Virus record (IMG/VR): IMGVR_UViG_3300048080_000231
Reading direction: 5' to 3' (one strand)
DNA length: 64,000 bases
Source: a virus
Below are positions 38,116 to 46,659 of the stretch, piece after piece. The translations under genes and the position numbers were made by a program. The notes under the pieces are model-generated. The model made no database searches. It had not been told where the DNA came from and saw nothing but the letters and a program-made list of their open reading frames with translations. The stretch's first letter is position 1. Each line of letters starts with the position of its first letter.

Positions 38116-39024
38116 ATGACAATCTACATAGACCCGTCAGAGTTGCGTGAAAATTCCAATCTCCTCAAATATCTCTCTGATGTGGTCTATGTCCCTCTCT
38201 CTGACTTGGAAGCGCAAACTGGGGCAGACTTGATGGTATCTCCTGATGGTCTGCCCCATCCATCTGAAAATTTAGAAACACACATCCTTTCTGGCGCAAA
38301 ACTGATACAAGTCAAATTCGGGCAAGACATCGCTGCCAGTATCGTAGATGGCCGGCTTGATGAGCAGCTAGCGCGTATGCAAGCATTGCCTACGCACTGG
38401 TGGCAAAGGATATTACTCTTTGTCGGTATCTTCTCATATGACGCCACGAAAGGCATGGCGACGATAAACGGCCAGCTAAGCTATACTAATCCCCCTCTCG
38501 CCTGGCGCAATATGCAAGGCATGTTCATCGCCTGGGCTGAGGGAGGCGCACTAGACTTTCCTCTAGCTTCTGGAAAGCTAATGAAAAACCATCTGGAATT
38601 ACACCAGATGCATGCTAACTACATTTATAAACACGGTGGCCGGGAAAAGATAATTATGCCCAAGCCAGAAAGGTTTATTGTCGGCTTACCTCATCCCAAT
38701 TCGCTTATTAGGGAATGGCAAGCCCGACAAACTAGGCTGATAAACGATATTCGTACCATTCTATGCGCTATTCCCGATGCTCATATTGGCCCAGATAAAG
38801 CGACGGCCATTTTTGATTACATGGCTGAGCATAGCATATCACAAAATTTAGATGGCTTGCTTGGTATGGTAATCGGGAAAAAGCCAGAATTGCTAAAAGT
38901 GGATGGTATCGGGAAAAAAACAGTAGAAGCGATTAAAGCTATTTTCGGTGAACTTGCTACAGAAAGGAGAATATCATTGCCAGAAAAAACGCACACGCCA
39001 AGAAAAAATGCGAAGGAAAAATAA
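38116..39024 (+). CDS. ERCC4/XPF-family structure-specific nuclease with HhH
   Basis: IYIDPSE, GADLMV, QVKFGQDIAASIVDGRLDEQLARM, C-terminal LLKVDGIGKKTVEAI. Confidence 0.75.
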   Translation: MTIYIDPSELRENSNLLKYLSDVVYVPLSDLEAQTGADLMVSPDGLPHPSENLETHILSGAKLIQVKFGQDIAASIVDGRLDEQLARMQALPTHWWQRILLFVGIFSYDATKGMATINGQLSYTNPPLAWRNMQGMFIAWAEGGALDFPLASGKLMKNHLELHQMHANYIYKHGGREKIIMPKPERFIVGLPHPNSLIREWQARQTRLINDIRTILCAIPDAHIGPDKATAIFDYMAEHSISQNLDGLLGMVIGKKPELLKVDGIGKKTVEAIKAIFGELATERRISLPEKTHTPRKNAKEK

Positions 39025-39166
39025 GACATGCTTCTAAGGACGCAGCATACTGGCATTTAAGAAATCACTTGAAGATTTTTCAACCTAATATGATAGCTAG
39101 AATCTATCGGTGCAATACTGTGATGGCTATCATATTGGACATAATAAAATGAAGTGGAGGTAATAA

Positions 39167-40261
39167 ATGAGGATTTCAATTCTTCCCCCTGAGATGAAGG
39201 GGGTTATAGTCCCGTCAGGTTATCGCGGGAAAGGAAAAACGCTTTTCGCTTCACAAGCTGATTTGCCAGAAAACATAGCATTTTTCGATTTTGAAGATAA
39301 AGCCGAAGGGCTTCATGCACAATTGCACTTTGGCTATTACAAATCTATTAGCCAACAGGAAAATACCCCTCTCTCCCGTGGTGACTTATTTTTGAGAGAG
39401 ATTGCCAACCTACCAGAAGATAAATTTACTGTAGCTATCATTGATAATATTTTACCATTAGAGAAGTCGTTACAAGCCCTGGTTTATCGTGATGCTAGAA
39501 AATATGCTGACATCTACGGCTATAGCATACCGGACATCATGAAAGATAGCTATGGCAAAGCGCGTGGTATTACCAATGACTTGATTGGTGATGCTATTTG
39601 TAAACCGCTCTACGCTAAAGGTATTCAGCTTGTTATTGCTACGTCACATGCTAAAGCAACTTACAATGTGCCAGGCAAGATGACCATTTATGGCCGAGAT
39701 CGTTGGCAAGATTTAAGTATCCTTACACTTATCTTAATAGACGGAGACCATCACCCCATTCCATCGGCTATTGTACAAAAGGAGCAACTTGCTTCTATTT
39801 CTTCCTTGGATAATCTAACCAACGAACAAATTCAAGCCATTATGCGCGGCGAACTGGCAAGCCATATTATTACGCGCCGGCTGCCGTATCGCTTACCCAA
39901 ATGCGATTGGCAGAGTATTAGATACTATCTTCATCATCCTGCAAACTTAAAAGAGCCAGGGTCGGGCGAAGCGTTAAATTTAGAGGAAGCTGAGCCATTC
40001 TCAGAACGATTAAGCAAAGAGCAAATAGCTTACCAATTACGCGCGCTTGAAGTTGAACAGCGCGCTGAGCAAGAAATGAGTAGCTTGGAATTGCTATTGT
40101 CTCAGGAGAAAGTCACGGCCATTAAAAAGTATCTGGCTGAAACGCTAAACGGGCAGCCCGTGCCAGTAAAAATCAACCAGCTAAAGAAAGCTATTGAATT
40201 GGGAGAACTCGCTTACGATGGCGAGATAACGCCTGGAAAAATAATAGAATGGAGCAAGTGA
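39167..40261 (+). CDS. AAA ATPase (AAA_24/Sak4-like recombinase)
   Basis: Walker A GYRGKGKT, FFDFE, Walker B VAIIDN, IATSHAK. Confidence 0.7.
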   Translation: MRISILPPEMKGVIVPSGYRGKGKTLFASQADLPENIAFFDFEDKAEGLHAQLHFGYYKSISQQENTPLSRGDLFLREIANLPEDKFTVAIIDNILPLEKSLQALVYRDARKYADIYGYSIPDIMKDSYGKARGITNDLIGDAICKPLYAKGIQLVIATSHAKATYNVPGKMTIYGRDRWQDLSILTLILIDGDHHPIPSAIVQKEQLASISSLDNLTNEQIQAIMRGELASHIITRRLPYRLPKCDWQSIRYYLHHPANLKEPGSGEALNLEEAEPFSERLSKEQIAYQLRALEVEQRAEQEMSSLELLLSQEKVTAIKKYLAETLNGQPVPVKINQLKKAIELGELAYDGEITPGKIIEWSK

Positions 40262-40425
40262 ATATGAAACCGCCTGAATTTATCCATATCCCCATCGGTA
40301 TTTACAATGGCGTAGACCTGCTAGATACTTATGTAGACGAGAATTATATCGTCTGGCTGATTACGCCAAATCCTGAATTGGAGTGCGAAATAGTGTACGA
40401 ATAGAGACAGTTAAACGGTAACTAT

Positions 40426-40458
40426 AAAAAAGAGAGGTAGAAATTACCTCTCTTTTTT
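40426..40458. terminator. Intrinsic terminator
   Basis: aaaaaagagaggta-gaaat-tacctctctttttt. Confidence 0.8.
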
Positions 40459-40481
40459 AATGTAACTCATATACTTTTTCC

Positions 40482-40511
40482 TTGACAATGTTATAAAAAG
40501 TGTGATATAAT
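40482..40511 (+). promoter_or_regulatory. sigma70 promoter
   Basis: TTGACA-N18-TG-A-TATAAT type; contains TTGACAAnnTTATAA. Confidence 0.7.
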
Positions 40512-40671
40512 TGATATTAAGAAGTAAAATTTTCAGGAGGTAAATAATGTGGATATTGATGATAGGAAAAAGACAAGTTGGCAAGCCGATGAATTATGAA
40601 AATGTCTGCTATTGGCAAGAGCGCATTGCTGAAATTTTCCCCGAAGTAACAATAAAAATGAGGAAACCATA

Positions 40672-41202
40672 ATGAGCAACTTATCCCAAAGAGTACAAAA
40701 AAGCAAAAGCTTAAAATTTGGCGCAGCTATTACCGGCCAAATTTCAAGCCATAAATACGTAGCTTATGGTTTCGTTTCCCCCCACTCCGAAAAAACCTAC
40801 GAAGTAAAACTGCAAAGGGAACGCCAAAATTCTCCCTTTGGAGACCAAGAAATTACCCACGATGTCATAACGGTCAATTGCAAGTTCTTTCATCCCCGGA
40901 ATGGTAATTTACAGTTGATGGATAATTGCCCCGGCAACAGCAAAAACACTATCTGCTATCACGGCTTGGGCGCAATCAGACATCACCTGGCGCAGAAAGG
41001 CTATACGATTGCTTTTTGTGCCAATGTGTTTGACGCCGTGAAACTTCGTAAGCCCAACCAAACCTTGGTGAAAGTTGTATCAGACCAGGGAGAGGGAATT
41101 TTATGGGCAGTGGTAGCGGAAAAGCCTAAACCAATTGAGGTTGAAGATTGGCAAGCCCAAGTTGAATTAATGCGCGGCCCGGAAGAAGCCGGCATAGATT
41201 GA
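40672..41202 (+). CDS. SWIM-like zinc finger protein
   Basis: YEVKL...VNC...CPGN..TICYHGLG. Confidence 0.5.
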   Translation: MSNLSQRVQKSKSLKFGAAITGQISSHKYVAYGFVSPHSEKTYEVKLQRERQNSPFGDQEITHDVITVNCKFFHPRNGNLQLMDNCPGNSKNTICYHGLGAIRHHLAQKGYTIAFCANVFDAVKLRKPNQTLVKVVSDQGEGILWAVVAEKPKPIEVEDWQAQVELMRGPEEAGID

Positions 41203-41214
41203 AAGGAATAAGAT

Positions 41215-41418
41215 ATGAAATATATTTTTATTCACCCTCCTATCCATTCCAAGAGCAAGACACAACGTTATCGCCTCAAAAATATGCCAGATGGTTCATA
41301 TCGCGCTGTTTGGCTTGAAATCAAAAGCAGTGCGGTTGCTTATTTCACCTCCAATGGCAAACAAAAAAAACGACTAACTACCCATAAAGATTTTTTAGAA
41401 TATAGCAGATTACCATGA
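41215..41418 (+). CDS. Hypothetical protein
   Basis: 67 aa ORF. Confidence 0.45.
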   Translation: MKYIFIHPPIHSKSKTQRYRLKNMPDGSYRAVWLEIKSSAVAYFTSNGKQKKRLTTHKDFLEYSRLP

Positions 41419-42788
41419 GTATTGAAACTTTTACTAAACAAGAGTTTGAAATCTATCTAAGCCAGCATCAGCCATATCAACCGCTTGGCCTCGTAGACGG
41501 AGAAGAAACCTATCTGCTCCCCCTCGATGGTCAAGTGGCTATCGCCATTCGCTCATCTGTAAAAGCAAATGGTATCTCAGCCGCCACCGGAGAGGATAGC
41601 ATCCGGCTTTGGCTAGTAGATAATGATAGCCAACCGCTTGGCAGCAAAGTGTCACGCTGGACAACTCGCCTGGCTGGCTGGCAAGATAGACTATCTCAAA
41701 ATATCAAAACACTATGCGAATGGCGCGCCGCGGCTGGTGATTGCCCAGAGTGCCAAAAACCAAAAGGTATTTTTAAGGTTAAAAAAGTCGGCGAGAATAA
41801 AGGCCGGCCATTCGCAAAGTGTAATGAGCATAATAATTTCATTTGGTTAGATGAAGAAAGGAAAGAAAATGTCTACTTCAGTAAAGCAAGCCACGGCGAT
41901 AATGGTAAAATCGAGCTTGTGGCACAAATGGCATGTGAAATCAGCCAATTCCAAGCTAACTTTATGCAATTTGAAGATACCATCAACGGCTTTCCAGATA
42001 CCAAACCAGAACCAATACCTGACCCCGCTCTGTTACGAGTGTGCGAACCAGTATCGCGCACTCCAAATGAGAAACAAGGATTAGCAATTGAAGCTGATGT
42101 AAATGCTAATTTGCGCGTGCTTGCTCCTCCGGGAAGCGGTAAGACATTTGTAATTGAGCACCGTTATAAGTTCCTAGTTGACAATGGTATCTCTCCCGAT
42201 TCTATCCTTGTCGTCACATTCTCAAAGCAGATGGCTGATGAAATGGGGAAGCGCATCATTAAAACTTGTCCTATCGCCAATTTAGAACAGATTAGTACCA
42301 TCCATGCTTTCTGTTTTCGATTGCTAACCAAATGGGATATAACTAGCCAATATCGCGGCTGGCAAGTTCCTGAGAATTGGAAGGTAAAAAAGCAACTTGA
42401 GGATACCATTGGTCTGGTCTGGAAAGAAAAAGAAAAACCGGGATACAATGAGGTATTAGATCAAATCAACCTCTCGAAGTATCATGGTTTTACCTCAGAT
42501 GAAGCGTACACCTTTTTCGTAAATACGCTTGGTCAAACTTATGGTAAGTGGCTCTATGACTTGCGGTGTCGTTTCGATGCTTGGCTAAAAAGTAACCGCT
42601 TTATGCTCTTTGCCGATATGCTTTATCTAGTGGAGCAACGGTTAAAAAAGGATGCGGCTTGGCGCGCGTGGTTACAGGGGAAATTTAGCCATATAATAAT
42701 TGATGAAAGCCAGGATATCAATTATCAAGCTATGCGCATCTTGGTAACAATCAGCTTAGAAAGTGGGAAGAACACAGTCTATGAATAA
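41415..42788 (+). CDS. UvrD/PcrA-like SF1 helicase, N-terminal half (with GRF zinc finger)
   Basis: CPEC...KKVGENKGRPFAKC..HNNFIWLD; Q motif NEKQ; Walker A APPGSGKT; VTFSKQMA; STIHAFCFRLL; Walker B IIIDESQD; then stop. Confidence 0.88.
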   Translation: MSIETFTKQEFEIYLSQHQPYQPLGLVDGEETYLLPLDGQVAIAIRSSVKANGISAATGEDSIRLWLVDNDSQPLGSKVSRWTTRLAGWQDRLSQNIKTLCEWRAAAGDCPECQKPKGIFKVKKVGENKGRPFAKCNEHNNFIWLDEERKENVYFSKASHGDNGKIELVAQMACEISQFQANFMQFEDTINGFPDTKPEPIPDPALLRVCEPVSRTPNEKQGLAIEADVNANLRVLAPPGSGKTFVIEHRYKFLVDNGISPDSILVVTFSKQMADEMGKRIIKTCPIANLEQISTIHAFCFRLLTKWDITSQYRGWQVPENWKVKKQLEDTIGLVWKEKEKPGYNEVLDQINLSKYHGFTSDEAYTFFVNTLGQTYGKWLYDLRCRFDAWLKSNRFMLFADMLYLVEQRLKKDAAWRAWLQGKFSHIIIDESQDINYQAMRILVTISLESGKNTVYE

Positions 42789-42996
42789 TAATCTGAATAA
42801 CAATCAACTAGTTAAAATTTATTCTGAAGCATCCATTCTTCTAATAAAACAGGATATTACCATTGAAAAATGCCTCAAAGCTATGGCTATCGTGAAAACA
42901 TATCTCCTGAATAAGGACACAACACCTCCAGAAACTTTAGTATTAGCATATTCTCTACTAGCAAGTATTATCAATGAGGCAGATAAATGTCCTTAA
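42781..42996 (+). CDS. Small ORF inserted between the helicase halves
   Basis: ATG overlaps the upstream stop; its stop overlaps the downstream ATG. Confidence 0.55.
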   Translation: MNNNLNNNQLVKIYSEASILLIKQDITIEKCLKAMAIVKTYLLNKDTTPPETLVLAYSLLASIINEADKCP

Positions 42997-44324
42997 TACT
43001 TGTGGCAGATGTAGACCAAATGATGTATAGATTTCAAGGTGCAAAGCCGGAAATCGTCACTGAAGAAATTCAGCGATACATTCTCGACGTTGAAACTATC
43101 AAGCTGGCCGTAAATTATCGCAGCTATGATGAAATTATCAATGCAGCTAGCAAACTAATCAGCCACAATTATAGCGACCTTAATGGCCCATATTCTCAAG
43201 AATTTATGAAAAATACAAGAGGAGTAAAAGGGCCTGGCGGCTTTATCGGCTTCCAAATGTACCTCGATGCTGAGGCCGAAGCGCAAGCGACGGTAGATAC
43301 TATCAGGGAATTATTTTGCCAAGGTTATCTTTCTGGCGATTTCTTTATTGGCTCACGTACCAGAGCGCAACTAGCTTACATTGAAGGCGCATTAGTTAAA
43401 GCTGGTATCAAGTTTCTGAGCACTGTTGGCGGCAGCTTCTGGACAAATAAGCACGTCGCTGATGTGGTAGCTTATTTGAAGTTGGCGCATAATACCAACG
43501 ATGGCGAAGCACTAAAGCGCATCTACAATATCCCCTCCGCTTCGCATAGCTATACCTGGAATGATAAGGAAGGGAAATTCCAGGCCGGGGATTATTGCCA
43601 TACGCGGTATCTCGGTCAGGAATTTTTAGCCAAGATAGATAACAATTTTAACAATATCAATAAGATATTCTCCTCTTCTGATGCTTGGCGATACAAAACC
43701 AAGCCACAGGATTACGAAAAGTACGGTGCAACTAAAGCGCAAGACCTGCAAGAATTTGTGTGGGCTGTTAAAGATGCGCTTAAGACCGCTAATGATATGG
43801 GCCGGGTTATTCAATTCATCATTGATAATTGCTATGAGAAATACCTTAGACACGAAGGTGCAAGTGATGAAGGTCTGGTCACGGCCAAATTGGATGATTT
43901 AGCAACAGTGCAAGAATTAGCTTCAAAATATTCTCAGGCTAATACTTTCCTTGCTTATGTGGCTGAAATGGAGAAGGCCGCAACAGATAAGGAAAATAAA
44001 GACTGGGCTGAATATGTAGTTATCTCAACTTACCATCGGCTTAAGGGCTTAGAGCGTAAGGTTGTTTTTGGCCTTGGCTGGTGCGAGGGGATAGACACTA
44101 AGACTGAAGAACCACGAGGCTTACTGCCACACACTTTTAGCATGGTGCCTCCGCCTCAATTTGGCATATTACCATCAAATGGTGTGTCACCGATGGAAGA
44201 TGAGAGATGTATAGCTTTTGTGGCTACCACGCGCGCTGCTGAGAGAGTATATCTTAGTGGCATTAAAACCTATCGGACTTGGATATTAGAGCCAAGTCGA
44301 TTTATAAAGGAGATGGGATTATGA
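42987..44324 (+). CDS. UvrD/PcrA-like SF1 helicase, C-terminal half
   Basis: Motif III VADVDQMMYRFQGA, IV LAVNYRS, RTRAQ, V STYHRLKGLE, VI EDERCIAFVATTRA; own GAGG RBS with in-frame TAA before the ATG. Confidence 0.88.
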   Translation: MSLILVADVDQMMYRFQGAKPEIVTEEIQRYILDVETIKLAVNYRSYDEIINAASKLISHNYSDLNGPYSQEFMKNTRGVKGPGGFIGFQMYLDAEAEAQATVDTIRELFCQGYLSGDFFIGSRTRAQLAYIEGALVKAGIKFLSTVGGSFWTNKHVADVVAYLKLAHNTNDGEALKRIYNIPSASHSYTWNDKEGKFQAGDYCHTRYLGQEFLAKIDNNFNNINKIFSSSDAWRYKTKPQDYEKYGATKAQDLQEFVWAVKDALKTANDMGRVIQFIIDNCYEKYLRHEGASDEGLVTAKLDDLATVQELASKYSQANTFLAYVAEMEKAATDKENKDWAEYVVISTYHRLKGLERKVVFGLGWCEGIDTKTEEPRGLLPHTFSMVPPPQFGILPSNGVSPMEDERCIAFVATTRAAERVYLSGIKTYRTWILEPSRFIKEMGL

Positions 44325-44875
44325 ATAAAATACATTATAATTTAATTGTATCGGGCGTTCTAATTTGGAACAAATGGCGACAAGAAAATCCCGCCATTGT
44401 CCCCGACTTGCGATGGGTTGACTTACATGAGGCTGACTTACATGAGGCTGACTTACATGAGGCTGACTTATATGAGGCTGACTTATATGAGGCTAGCTTG
44501 ATCGGGGCTAGCTTGTATGGGGCTAACTTACATGGGGCTAACTTGCGCGGGGCTAGCTTGATCAAAACTAACTTACATGGGGCTGACTTACATGGGGCTG
44601 ACTTGAGCGAAGCTAACTTGCGCGAGGCTAGCTTGAGCGGGGCTGACTTGAGCGAGGCCAAGGGAATTGTCCAGCTACTGTGGGCCGGTTTTACAATCCT
44701 CATCTGGCAGCGAGAAGGCGTAAAGTACGCAAAAATTGGCTGCCGAGAAAAAACCGTCAGCGACTGGCTTTTACTCTCGGATGATAAGGCGATTTTGCTT
44801 GGCGCAAAATCGGAGCATCTGATTGGCTATCGTCTTGTTATGGAATTCGCAACAGCTTTTTTGTTTGATGAATAA
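44321..44875 (+). CDS. Pentapeptide repeat protein
   Basis: W N.WR..NP..PDL then ADLHE/ADLYE/ANLHG/ASLSG repeats encoded by 15-bp tandem repeats (gaggctgacttacat). Confidence 0.9.
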   Translation: MNKIHYNLIVSGVLIWNKWRQENPAIVPDLRWVDLHEADLHEADLHEADLYEADLYEASLIGASLYGANLHGANLRGASLIKTNLHGADLHGADLSEANLREASLSGADLSEAKGIVQLLWAGFTILIWQREGVKYAKIGCREKTVSDWLLLSDDKAILLGAKSEHLIGYRLVMEFATAFLFDE

Positions 44876-44980
44876 TAATTCCTTTTTAGGTTACTTTGAT
44901 GCTATTGGTATTGATAATACATGGCAAGATGCTAAAGGAAATAGTATCAAGCCATTATTAGACGAATTGGAGAAAGTAAA

Positions 44981-45163
44981 ATGATTAGCATTACATACGA
45001 AGCAGGTAAAAGCCAATGTTTGCACTGCTTAAAAAAAGATAAGGCTATTTACGATTTACGTATAAGCTCATTATCATTATCGCTGTGCTTGGCTTGTTTG
45101 GAGAAGATAAAACAAGCAATAGAAAATGTCCAGGACTATCAAAAAGAGAATAAACTACAATGA
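44981..45163 (+). CDS. Small Zn-binding protein
   Basis: CLHC...CLAC. Confidence 0.45.
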   Translation: MISITYEAGKSQCLHCLKKDKAIYDLRISSLSLSLCLACLEKIKQAIENVQDYQKENKLQ

Positions 45164-46659
45164 CCTACCTTATTCATCCCCTTGACCGTCCCGGCCAGCA
45201 AGCCGCTTTTGACTTTATCCTAAATAGTCAAAAAAAATATATTATCATCAATGCTCCCACCGGGTCAGGTAAGTCCGCCTGGGCTGCTGAGATGTCTAAG
45301 CACTATCGAACATTAGTTCTGACAGAGCACAAGAGCTTGCAGTCTACAAATTATAGAGACCAGTACCAATTTGATATTCTCTACGGTAAATCAAACTATC
45401 CCTGTGAAGATAAAGAACGAAAAAAGCTACACTGGACTTGCTTTGACTGTGGAAATCCCGACTGCCAATGTCCTTATAATTTGGCTGAAATGAATTGCCT
45501 TAAATCTCTCCGTGTTTCGCTTAACTATGCGAAATTTCTGATGAGTGGGGATTTTGTAGATAGATACAATCCTGAAATTTTATTTTTGGATGAAGGCCAT
45601 AATGTGCCTGACATCGTAACTGAATTTATTGGCTTTGGTCTCGAATGGAAGAATGAATTTATTAAATATCTTTCCCCGCCTGAACCAATGCGTTTAACCT
45701 TTTCCGAGGCTATGCACATCTTCAAACAATGCCTTGGCGCACTGGAAAAGAATAAGCCCAAGCGTCCTGAAACAAACAGTAACTTGAGCCAAAAAGATGT
45801 GAAATACGCCATGGAAAAATGGCGTAAGTGGAAGCATCTAAAGCAGAAGTTGGAAATTACAGCAGCCTTGCTTGAAAAAGGCGAACCGCTGGATTGGTAT
45901 TTTGAAGCGGAAAAAGAGAAATTGATTATTAAACCACTTACGGCTAAATACCACTTCAAGCGCATGTTTGATGCAGCTGATAAAGTAGTTCTGATGTCAG
46001 CCACAATTAAACCGTCAATTGCCGAGGAACTTGGTATTGGCGAAAATGAATTTGATTATTATGAAGTACCTCATATCTGGCCCGCTCCTCTGCGCCTGGT
46101 TCATGATCTTGGTTGCCCACGTATGAATTGGGAAAGCACGGACTATGATAAAGGCAAGCAAGCTGAAATAATAGCTAAATTTCTTAGCCGGTCAGTGTCA
46201 GGTATCATCCATGTTTCTTCGAAAGCACAAGCTGCCGAGTTAAAAGAGAAATTGAATTATCATGGCTTTGACATTTGGCTGCCACCAGATGGCCAGGGAA
46301 CTGATGAGCAATTGCAAGCCTGGTACGAAGCGCGCCGGCCGGGGATGTATTGTATCTCCTGGAATTTTCACGAAGGCGTTGATTTAGGAAATGATGCTAT
46401 AAATATCATTGCTAAAATTCCTTATACTAATATCGGAAGCGGCTACGAGTATGCTAAAATGGAATATAATCAGCAGGCATATTTAGAGCGAGCCGCTTAT
46501 CGGCTAGAGCAAGCGTCTGGCCGGAACAGGCGCGGGGAGTTTGGACATTACCAGCCAGGTGCGCGTTTTGTGGCTATTGCTGATGGAGCCTGGCATAGGT
46601 TGAAGTCGCTATTATCTGTGGAATATGTAAAAAGTATCAGAAAATGGAATGGAAAATAA
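45160..46659 (+). CDS. DinG/Rad3-like SF2 helicase
   Basis: APTGSGKS, NYPC, LFLDEGHN, LMSATI, EGVDL..IIAKIPY, QASGRNRR. Confidence 0.82.
   Translation: MTYLIHPLDRPGQQAAFDFILNSQKKYIIINAPTGSGKSAWAAEMSKHYRTLVLTEHKSLQSTNYRDQYQFDILYGKSNYPCEDKERKKLHWTCFDCGNPDCQCPYNLAEMNCLKSLRVSLNYAKFLMSGDFVDRYNPEILFLDEGHNVPDIVTEFIGFGLEWKNEFIKYLSPPEPMRLTFSEAMHIFKQCLGALEKNKPKRPETNSNLSQKDVKYAMEKWRKWKHLKQKLEITAALLEKGEPLDWYFEAEKEKLIIKPLTAKYHFKRMFDAADKVVLMSATIKPSIAEELGIGENEFDYYEVPHIWPAPLRLVHDLGCPRMNWESTDYDKGKQAEIIAKFLSRSVSGIIHVSSKAQAAELKEKLNYHGFDIWLPPDGQGTDEQLQAWYEARRPGMYCISWNFHEGVDLGNDAINIIAKIPYTNIGSGYEYAKMEYNQQAYLERAAYRLEQASGRNRRGEFGHYQPGARFVAIADGAWHRLKSLLSVEYVKSIRKWNGK

Follow-up and report, generated by a model that had tools for sequence, protein, structure and literature searches.

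The virus record IMGVR_UViG_3300048080_000231 of IMG/VR, 64,000 nucleotides (nt) long and called the window below, encodes a UvrD/PcrA-type helicase of superfamily 1A (SF1A) on two separate cistrons. The N-terminal part of the enzyme (N-half, 457 amino acids (aa)) occupies 41415..42788 and the C-terminal part (C-half, 445 aa) occupies 42987..44324, both on the + strand. The gap between them is filled by a minigene of 71 aa on the same strand (42781..42996), an orphan open reading frame (ORF) with its ATG at 42781 and its TAA at 42994-42996, which overlaps the N-half stop by 8 nt (tATGAATAA) and the C-half ATG by 10 nt. Translation of the C-half starts from signals of its own (42976..42989, + strand), namely a Shine-Dalgarno GAGG at 42976-42979, 7 nt ahead of the ATG, and an in-frame TAA at 42984-42986 immediately ahead of the ATG. 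The two halves share one frame in the window, and that frame contains nine stops across the gap.

Domain content and position of the cut

SF1A helicases (UvrD, PcrA, Rep) are single-chain motors. In the window, Pfam profiles distribute such a motor over two polypeptides. The N-half matches UvrD-helicase (PF00580) at profile positions 2-237 of 271 (residues 218-448, E-value (E) 2.7e-30), residues 3-29 of the C-half take up the same profile at positions 242-268, and C-half residues 38-426 match UvrD_C (PF13361, E 7e-25). Because the N-half match ends at position 237 and the C-half match resumes at 242, the cut between motifs II and III is a clean one. Motifs Q, I (GxGxGKT), Ia, Ib and II (DExQD) of the ATP-binding core are all present on the N-half, where Q221, G240, G242, K243, D430, E431 and D434 are invariant in the family alignment. 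The second polypeptide begins with the motif III strand of domain 1A, followed by domains 2A and 2B, and carries motifs III (GDxDQ..Y.F.GA), IV (NYRS), V (H..KGLE) and VI (TRA). In SF1 helicases, motifs III to VI supply the rest of the ATP site and link ATP hydrolysis to DNA.

Alignment with PcrA (1PJR) pairs N-half residues 223-439 with PcrA residues 18-232, ending just beyond DEYQD, and the C-half with PcrA residues 246-433 and 493-621, residue 246 being in the motif III strand. The cut falls in a loop, at about PcrA residues 233-245, that leads from the helix behind motif II to the strand of motif III. From the domain maps of PcrA and UvrD, we take this loop to lie inside the RecA-like domain 1A rather than at the border of a domain; domain 1A would therefore be completed only by both chains together. 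An AlphaFold2 model of the N-half (mean predicted local distance difference test (pLDDT) score 86) has the motif II strand at residues 426-429, a helix at 437-447 and a coil tail at 448-457, and Foldseek matches it with probability 1.0 to PcrA, UvrD and Rep, superposing ~240 columns on domains 1A and 1B. The protein thus resembles the known enzymes (PDB 1PJR, 3PJR, 2IS1, 3LFU and 1UAA) in having all SF1A motifs and a model that fits domains 1A/1B, but differs from them in its two polypeptides, its extra N-terminal domain with a zinc ribbon, its low identity (~23-25%) and its phage replication-module context.

Ahead of its SF1A part, the N-half has a beta-rich domain, a GRF-like zinc ribbon and a disordered linker. 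Residues 1-170 (41415-41930) comprise the beta-rich domain, which is confidently folded (pLDDT ~90), has no family match and bears invariant RSS and DSIR motifs ahead of the ribbon. The ribbon itself (residues 109-149, 41739..41861, + strand) follows the pattern CxxC ... GRPF ... CxxH ... FIWLD. C110, C113 and L145 are invariant in the family alignment, C136, R131, F133, W144 and D146 are nearly so, and several N-half homologues have PF23549, PF06839 or PF01396 in precomputed Pfam lists. Scores for the window protein are 25.4 bits for Zn_ribbon_GRF_2 (PF23549, cutoff 27, E 1.2e-5) and 18.8 bits for PF06839 (cutoff 25.9). This N-terminal module is missing in some split members of the family (the N-half of L001 has 273 aa) and longer in others (P0036, P0039 and P0048), which makes it swappable.

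An earlier sequence-only reading of this locus had placed motifs Q to II in one ORF and III to VI in another, with a 71-aa ORF overlapping both halves and with a ribosome-binding site and in-frame TAA ahead of the second half; the profile matches and coordinates given above bear out each of these points. Its assignment of a GRF zinc finger stands as to the signature residues, which are kept in the family, but the Pfam score falls short of the cutoff.

Conservation of the break in the family

Protein searches returned dozens of N-half homologues of ~435-535 aa, with 37-64% identity, that contain the N-terminal helicase domains only. In at least 55 clusters (37-68% identity), the N-half stops 28-37 residues past DExQD, with a tail of the form ...SLEPG-x-N-x-[V/I]-Y plus a few residues. 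In the window, this tail reads SLESGKNTVYE (42756..42785, + strand); its G-x-N-x-[V/I]-Y signature is specific to the family and absent from single-chain relatives. The same searches gave ~75 clusters of stand-alone C-halves (~425-515 aa), which start M-x(3-4)-[V/I]GD with the methionine 4-5 residues ahead of (V/I)GDxDQ; one of them (P0124) is 88% identical to the window C-half. More than 20 N-half and C-half pairs apparently lie on the same contig, as judged by identical 'longest contig' values. Close relatives were seen only in viral or metagenomic collections, and a scan of species genomes returned only distant cellular UvrD/Rep proteins with at most 31% identity. At the nucleotide level, the window had no match in phage or plasmid collections, and a scan of viral contigs with a single protein came back empty.

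Nine further distinct split loci were read as DNA in scans of IMG/VR and metagenomes. A purine-rich Shine-Dalgarno sequence precedes every readable C-half ATG among them, the halves are adjacent and co-oriented in every locus in which both were found, and the frame relation between N-half and C-half is not fixed across loci. Tail codons of the N-halves vary at synonymous positions among loci, which indicates that the tail is conserved as a peptide and not as RNA or DNA. Non-synonymous divergence (dN) is 0.29-0.41 with saturated synonymous divergence (dS) for both halves; on these values, both are under purifying selection. The homologue comparison thus strongly upholds the sequence-only reading in its view of a natural two-polypeptide split rather than a broken gene, since the break, the position of the start codon and the two halves persist throughout a large clade of viral or metagenomic origin.

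Uninterrupted, in-frame relatives of the helicase also exist (L004-L009, P0034, P0051, P0052, P0064, P0066 and others). Their junction reads AMRILTTLAEPQNRFYIVGDTDQ or AMRILTTLAEPQN-RFY-IVGDTDQ. A quick maximum-likelihood tree of the N-terminal core (230 columns) places single-chain forms basally and split forms as derived. Both the end of the N-half (N-TVY) and the beginning of the C-half (M-TLT-IVGD) look similar to N-RFY-IVGD of the single-chain forms, which hints at a short duplication at the break.

Mobile elements occur in the same region of other relatives. The single-chain relative P0067 has an intein-like insertion (CVLEGQKILTPTGY...) directly after VGDADQ of motif III, and the SPO1-like Bacillus phage CampHawk has an annotated intein-containing UvrD-like helicase, the match of which to the C-half begins at residue 13. 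Mobile elements seem to target the motif III region repeatedly. The intein-like insertion of P0067 and the annotated inteins of the SPO1-like phages would restore one chain by in-frame protein splicing, whereas the split helicase has stops, separate starts and no intein motifs, although the element sits in the same motif III neighborhood.

Gap contents and genomic setting

Gap content differs from locus to locus. There is nothing in the gap of L001/L137 and L138, in which the N-half stop overlaps the C-half ATG (GGAATGA); the split therefore needs no intervening element. L143 has 54 nt with no ORF. Elsewhere, the gap holds a 72-aa cysteine-rich ORF that overlaps both halves (L140), an ORF of ~60 aa (L142), an ORF of ~110 aa (L003), two ORFs of 64 and 113 aa (L136), or a 378-aa ORF (L144), compared with the 71-aa ORF of the window. 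L002/L141 carries an HNH_3 homing endonuclease (Pfam E 2.9e-10; PHROG HNH families) together with a 107-aa ORF. This endonuclease is free-standing, lies exactly at the helicase break (L002:5389-5943, the same locus as L141, in a relative from a 109-kb contig) and overlaps the N-half end by ~30 nt. In L139, more than 2.5 kb of small ORFs extend to the contig end, so that in this locus the gap is very large or the C-half has been lost; the ORFs at L139:1224-3774 are 57-94 aa long, and one is weakly similar to the cysteine-rich ORF of L140. That pair (E 2e-4) apart, no homology was found between gap ORFs of different loci.

The gap has a lower guanine-plus-cytosine (GC) content than both flanking halves in all loci but L140 (gap 0.36 vs 0.34 in the N-half fragment); in the window it is 0.32 vs 0.43 in the flanks. 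A search for target-site duplications around the window gap gave only repeats of 8-12 nt, in five pairs against ~5 expected by chance (hand estimate), among them TGAGGCAGAT / TGTGGCAGAT near the C-half start. Taken together, the best reading of these loci is that the break is a variable slot in which passenger genes come and go.

The 71-aa ORF of the window has no relatives. It is represented by one member on one contig among 5.8 billion protein clusters and matches only itself among 1.84 billion representatives. Neither Pfam nor PHROG places it in a family, it matches no HNH or GIY-YIG domain, and tblastn gave no match in related loci. Structure prediction gives a three-helix bundle with moderate confidence, with structure matches to generic helical bundles only, and atlas leads to its function all scored below 0.8. 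Among 5000 dinucleotide shuffles, only 34 gave an ORF spanning the entire gap. Given this rarity and the predicted fold, the ORF is probably a real small gene. It is probably translated, but it is not a conserved helicase partner, and nothing links it to the enzyme. The earlier suggestion that the intervening protein regulates the helicase loses its footing here, as the ORF is a singleton and other gaps are empty or hold unrelated genes. In contrast, the analogy then drawn with Aeh1 nrdA, split by mobE, proved apt in view of the one relative with an HNH endonuclease in the gap.

Five successive cistrons lie between 41215 and 44875 on the + strand: a 67-aa ORF with no Pfam family (41215..41418), the N-half, the 71-aa ORF, the C-half and a pentapeptide-repeat protein gene (44321..44875, Pfam Pentapeptide E 8.6e-33). 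The stop of the first overlaps the N-half start (ATGA), and the ATG of the last overlaps the C-half stop (ATGA). With the overlaps of 8 and 10 nt on either side of the minigene, this layout suggests one translationally coupled string. A sigma-70-type promoter-like site (40482..40511, + strand) consists of TTGACA, 18 nt and TG-TATAAT, with 12/12 hexamer matches. It is a perfect extended sigma-70 consensus and lies upstream of a 176-aa ORF at 40672, the first of the gene string that contains the split helicase. No terminator-like sites were found on the + strand between the promoter-like site and 44324. Neighboring genes at 38116-40261 and 45160-46659 form a replication/recombination module; their products include a protein of 302 aa that bears a helix-hairpin-helix motif, an AAA_24-like P-loop protein of 364 aa and a DinG/XPD-like helicase (Helicase_C_2) of 499 aa. 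The 364-aa, 176-aa and 499-aa genes are syntenic in L001.

Assembly of the two chains and its alternatives

We consider that these data are best explained by an anciently split SF1A helicase that assembles non-covalently, with the break serving as a passenger slot and the minigene as its present passenger, and we assign this reading a probability of about 0.8. A phage UvrD/PcrA/Rep-type helicase would have been encoded as two cistrons over the long term. The N-subunit would join a DNA-binding-like module (the beta-rich domain and GRF-type zinc ribbon) to motifs Q-II, and the C-subunit would begin with the motif III beta-strand of domain 1A and continue into 2A and 2B with motifs IV-VI. One polycistronic mRNA would give rise to both chains, with a separate start codon for each amid overlapping stop and start codons, and the chains would most probably bind each other non-covalently to form a single active helicase in the phage replication/recombination module. 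The split may have originated in an insertion of the homing-endonuclease type, after which the break would have turned into a slot that is occupied here by a lineage-specific, predicted three-helix orphan ORF. That the cut is old and common to dozens of related phages while the small gap gene is a one-off argues for a working split enzyme and not a broken gene.

Phage 'genes in pieces' provide precedents. Aeh1 nrdA is split by mobE and the T4 topoisomerase genes 39/60 by mobA, DNA polymerase genes 43A/43B of phages 25 and 44RR are separated by a seg gene or an untranslated spacer, and for Aeh1 NrdA and gp43A/B of phage 25 the two chains make up a working enzyme (PMC2988022). Like these T4-type cases, the helicase is an essential phage DNA-metabolism enzyme that is cut in its conserved core into two cistrons needing reassembly, its cut site can host a free-standing homing endonuclease (the HNH gene of L002) or other filler, and its stop and start codons overlap in a way that suggests translational coupling. 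It also shares with the nrdA/mobE type the existence of single-chain relatives and, for each piece, an own translation start and purifying selection. Several features set it apart. The window gap lacks a homing endonuclease and has an orphan ORF instead, and most readable members of the family are without an endonuclease. The cut enzyme is an SF1A helicase broken within RecA-like domain 1A, with a conserved extra tail (G-x-N-x-V-Y) on the N-half. The split is common to a large, deep clade (37-68% identity), whereas T4-type cases are confined to one or a few phages. Full-text literature searches yielded the T4 precedents and no published description of a split phage UvrD helicase.

Some observations weigh against an old, assembled two-chain enzyme. 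The AlphaFold2 model of the N-half alone shows the conserved tail as coil, L139 has no C-half within 2.5 kb downstream of its N-half, and gap content is readable for only a minority of family members. Three single-chain forms are nested in the split clade of the quick tree, so that re-fusion, or splitting on more than one occasion, may be part of the history. By an approximately unbiased (AU) test, a tree that unites all split forms in a single clade is not rejected (p 0.234), in line with a possible single old split.

The split could also be an adaptation and not a tolerated scar, with the helicase switched on by subunit assembly. The strictly conserved G-x-N-x-V-Y tail would then be a place-holder strand or zipper that times the completion of domain 1A by the C-subunit, an idea prompted by the likeness of the tail to N-RFY-IVGD, with which the motif III strand of single-chain relatives begins. 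The break would double as a protected landing slot in which endonucleases and accessory genes could be swapped at no cost to the phage. We regard this extension as unlikely. A dedicated role of the 71-aa protein in regulating or assembling the helicase, by binding one half and controlling heterodimer formation, seems less likely again. The tight coupling of its gene to both halves, the improbability of a gap-filling ORF by chance and the predicted helical bundle would fit such a role, and L140 and L142 each also have a single small ORF tightly coupled to the C-half start, that of L140 overlapping both halves. However, a conserved partner is difficult to reconcile with a protein that lacks homologs in both cluster sets and in the related loci, with relatives whose gaps are empty or hold unrelated genes, and with a gap GC content far below that of the flanks, as expected of a recent passenger.

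Separate jobs for the halves are a distinctly poor explanation. On this view, the N-half might for instance act as an adaptor or as a DNA-binding ATPase fragment with a zinc finger, the C-half would be an accessory protein in its own right, and no joint helicase would exist. The modularity of the N-halves, some without the GRF module (L001) and some with longer N-termini (P0036, P0048), would be in keeping with this, as would the missing C-half of L139. Yet motifs I/II on one half and III-VI on the other are all conserved, and the halves are adjacent and co-oriented wherever both were found. With the ATP-binding motifs and those that complete the site on different chains, neither half would be expected to hydrolyze ATP alone.

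There is very little to recommend restoration of one chain by removal or bypass of the gap through a group I/II intron, an intein or split intein, frameshifting or ribosome hopping. The halves are in the same frame in the window and the motif III region hosts inteins in other relatives (P0067 and the CampHawk annotation), but the in-frame stops across the gap, the differing frame relation among loci and a split with no gap in L001 oppose it. Regarding introns, no Rfam intron family was found at E up to 10 over 40000-46000, the fold of the gap RNA has a z of -0.32 vs shuffles, and L001 is split without intervening sequence. Inteins and split inteins were rejected because the N-half tail extends 5-25 residues past the last shared residue with no conserved Cys/Ser at +1 and no block motifs, and because C-half residue 2 is T, S, P or A with no conserved nucleophile. 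Readthrough, frameshifting and hopping fail on the many in-frame stops and the inconsistent frame relation. A decaying pseudogene or assembly error, in which a once-intact helicase was lately disrupted by insertion, is the least credible explanation, for although single-chain relatives exist and the gap composition looks foreign, the conservation data contradict it with an identical break in dozens of divergent lineages from independent samples, intact catalytic motifs, a maintained start position and Shine-Dalgarno sequence, and dN ~0.3 with saturated dS.

The two-chain helicase adds an old, family-wide case to the few known phage 'genes in pieces' and is evidence that a break in a gene can last, with passenger genes and homing endonucleases lodging in it. 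It also carries a warning for annotation, as pairs that are now mostly labeled 'hypothetical protein' and 'PcrA' would represent one enzyme and not pseudogenes. A large natural family in which the cut separates motif II, for ATP binding, from motif III, for coupling, would offer a system for probing how a motor core copes with being fragmented. The way in which two chains meet might also be learned from it, and it points to a design for split helicases controlled by assembly.

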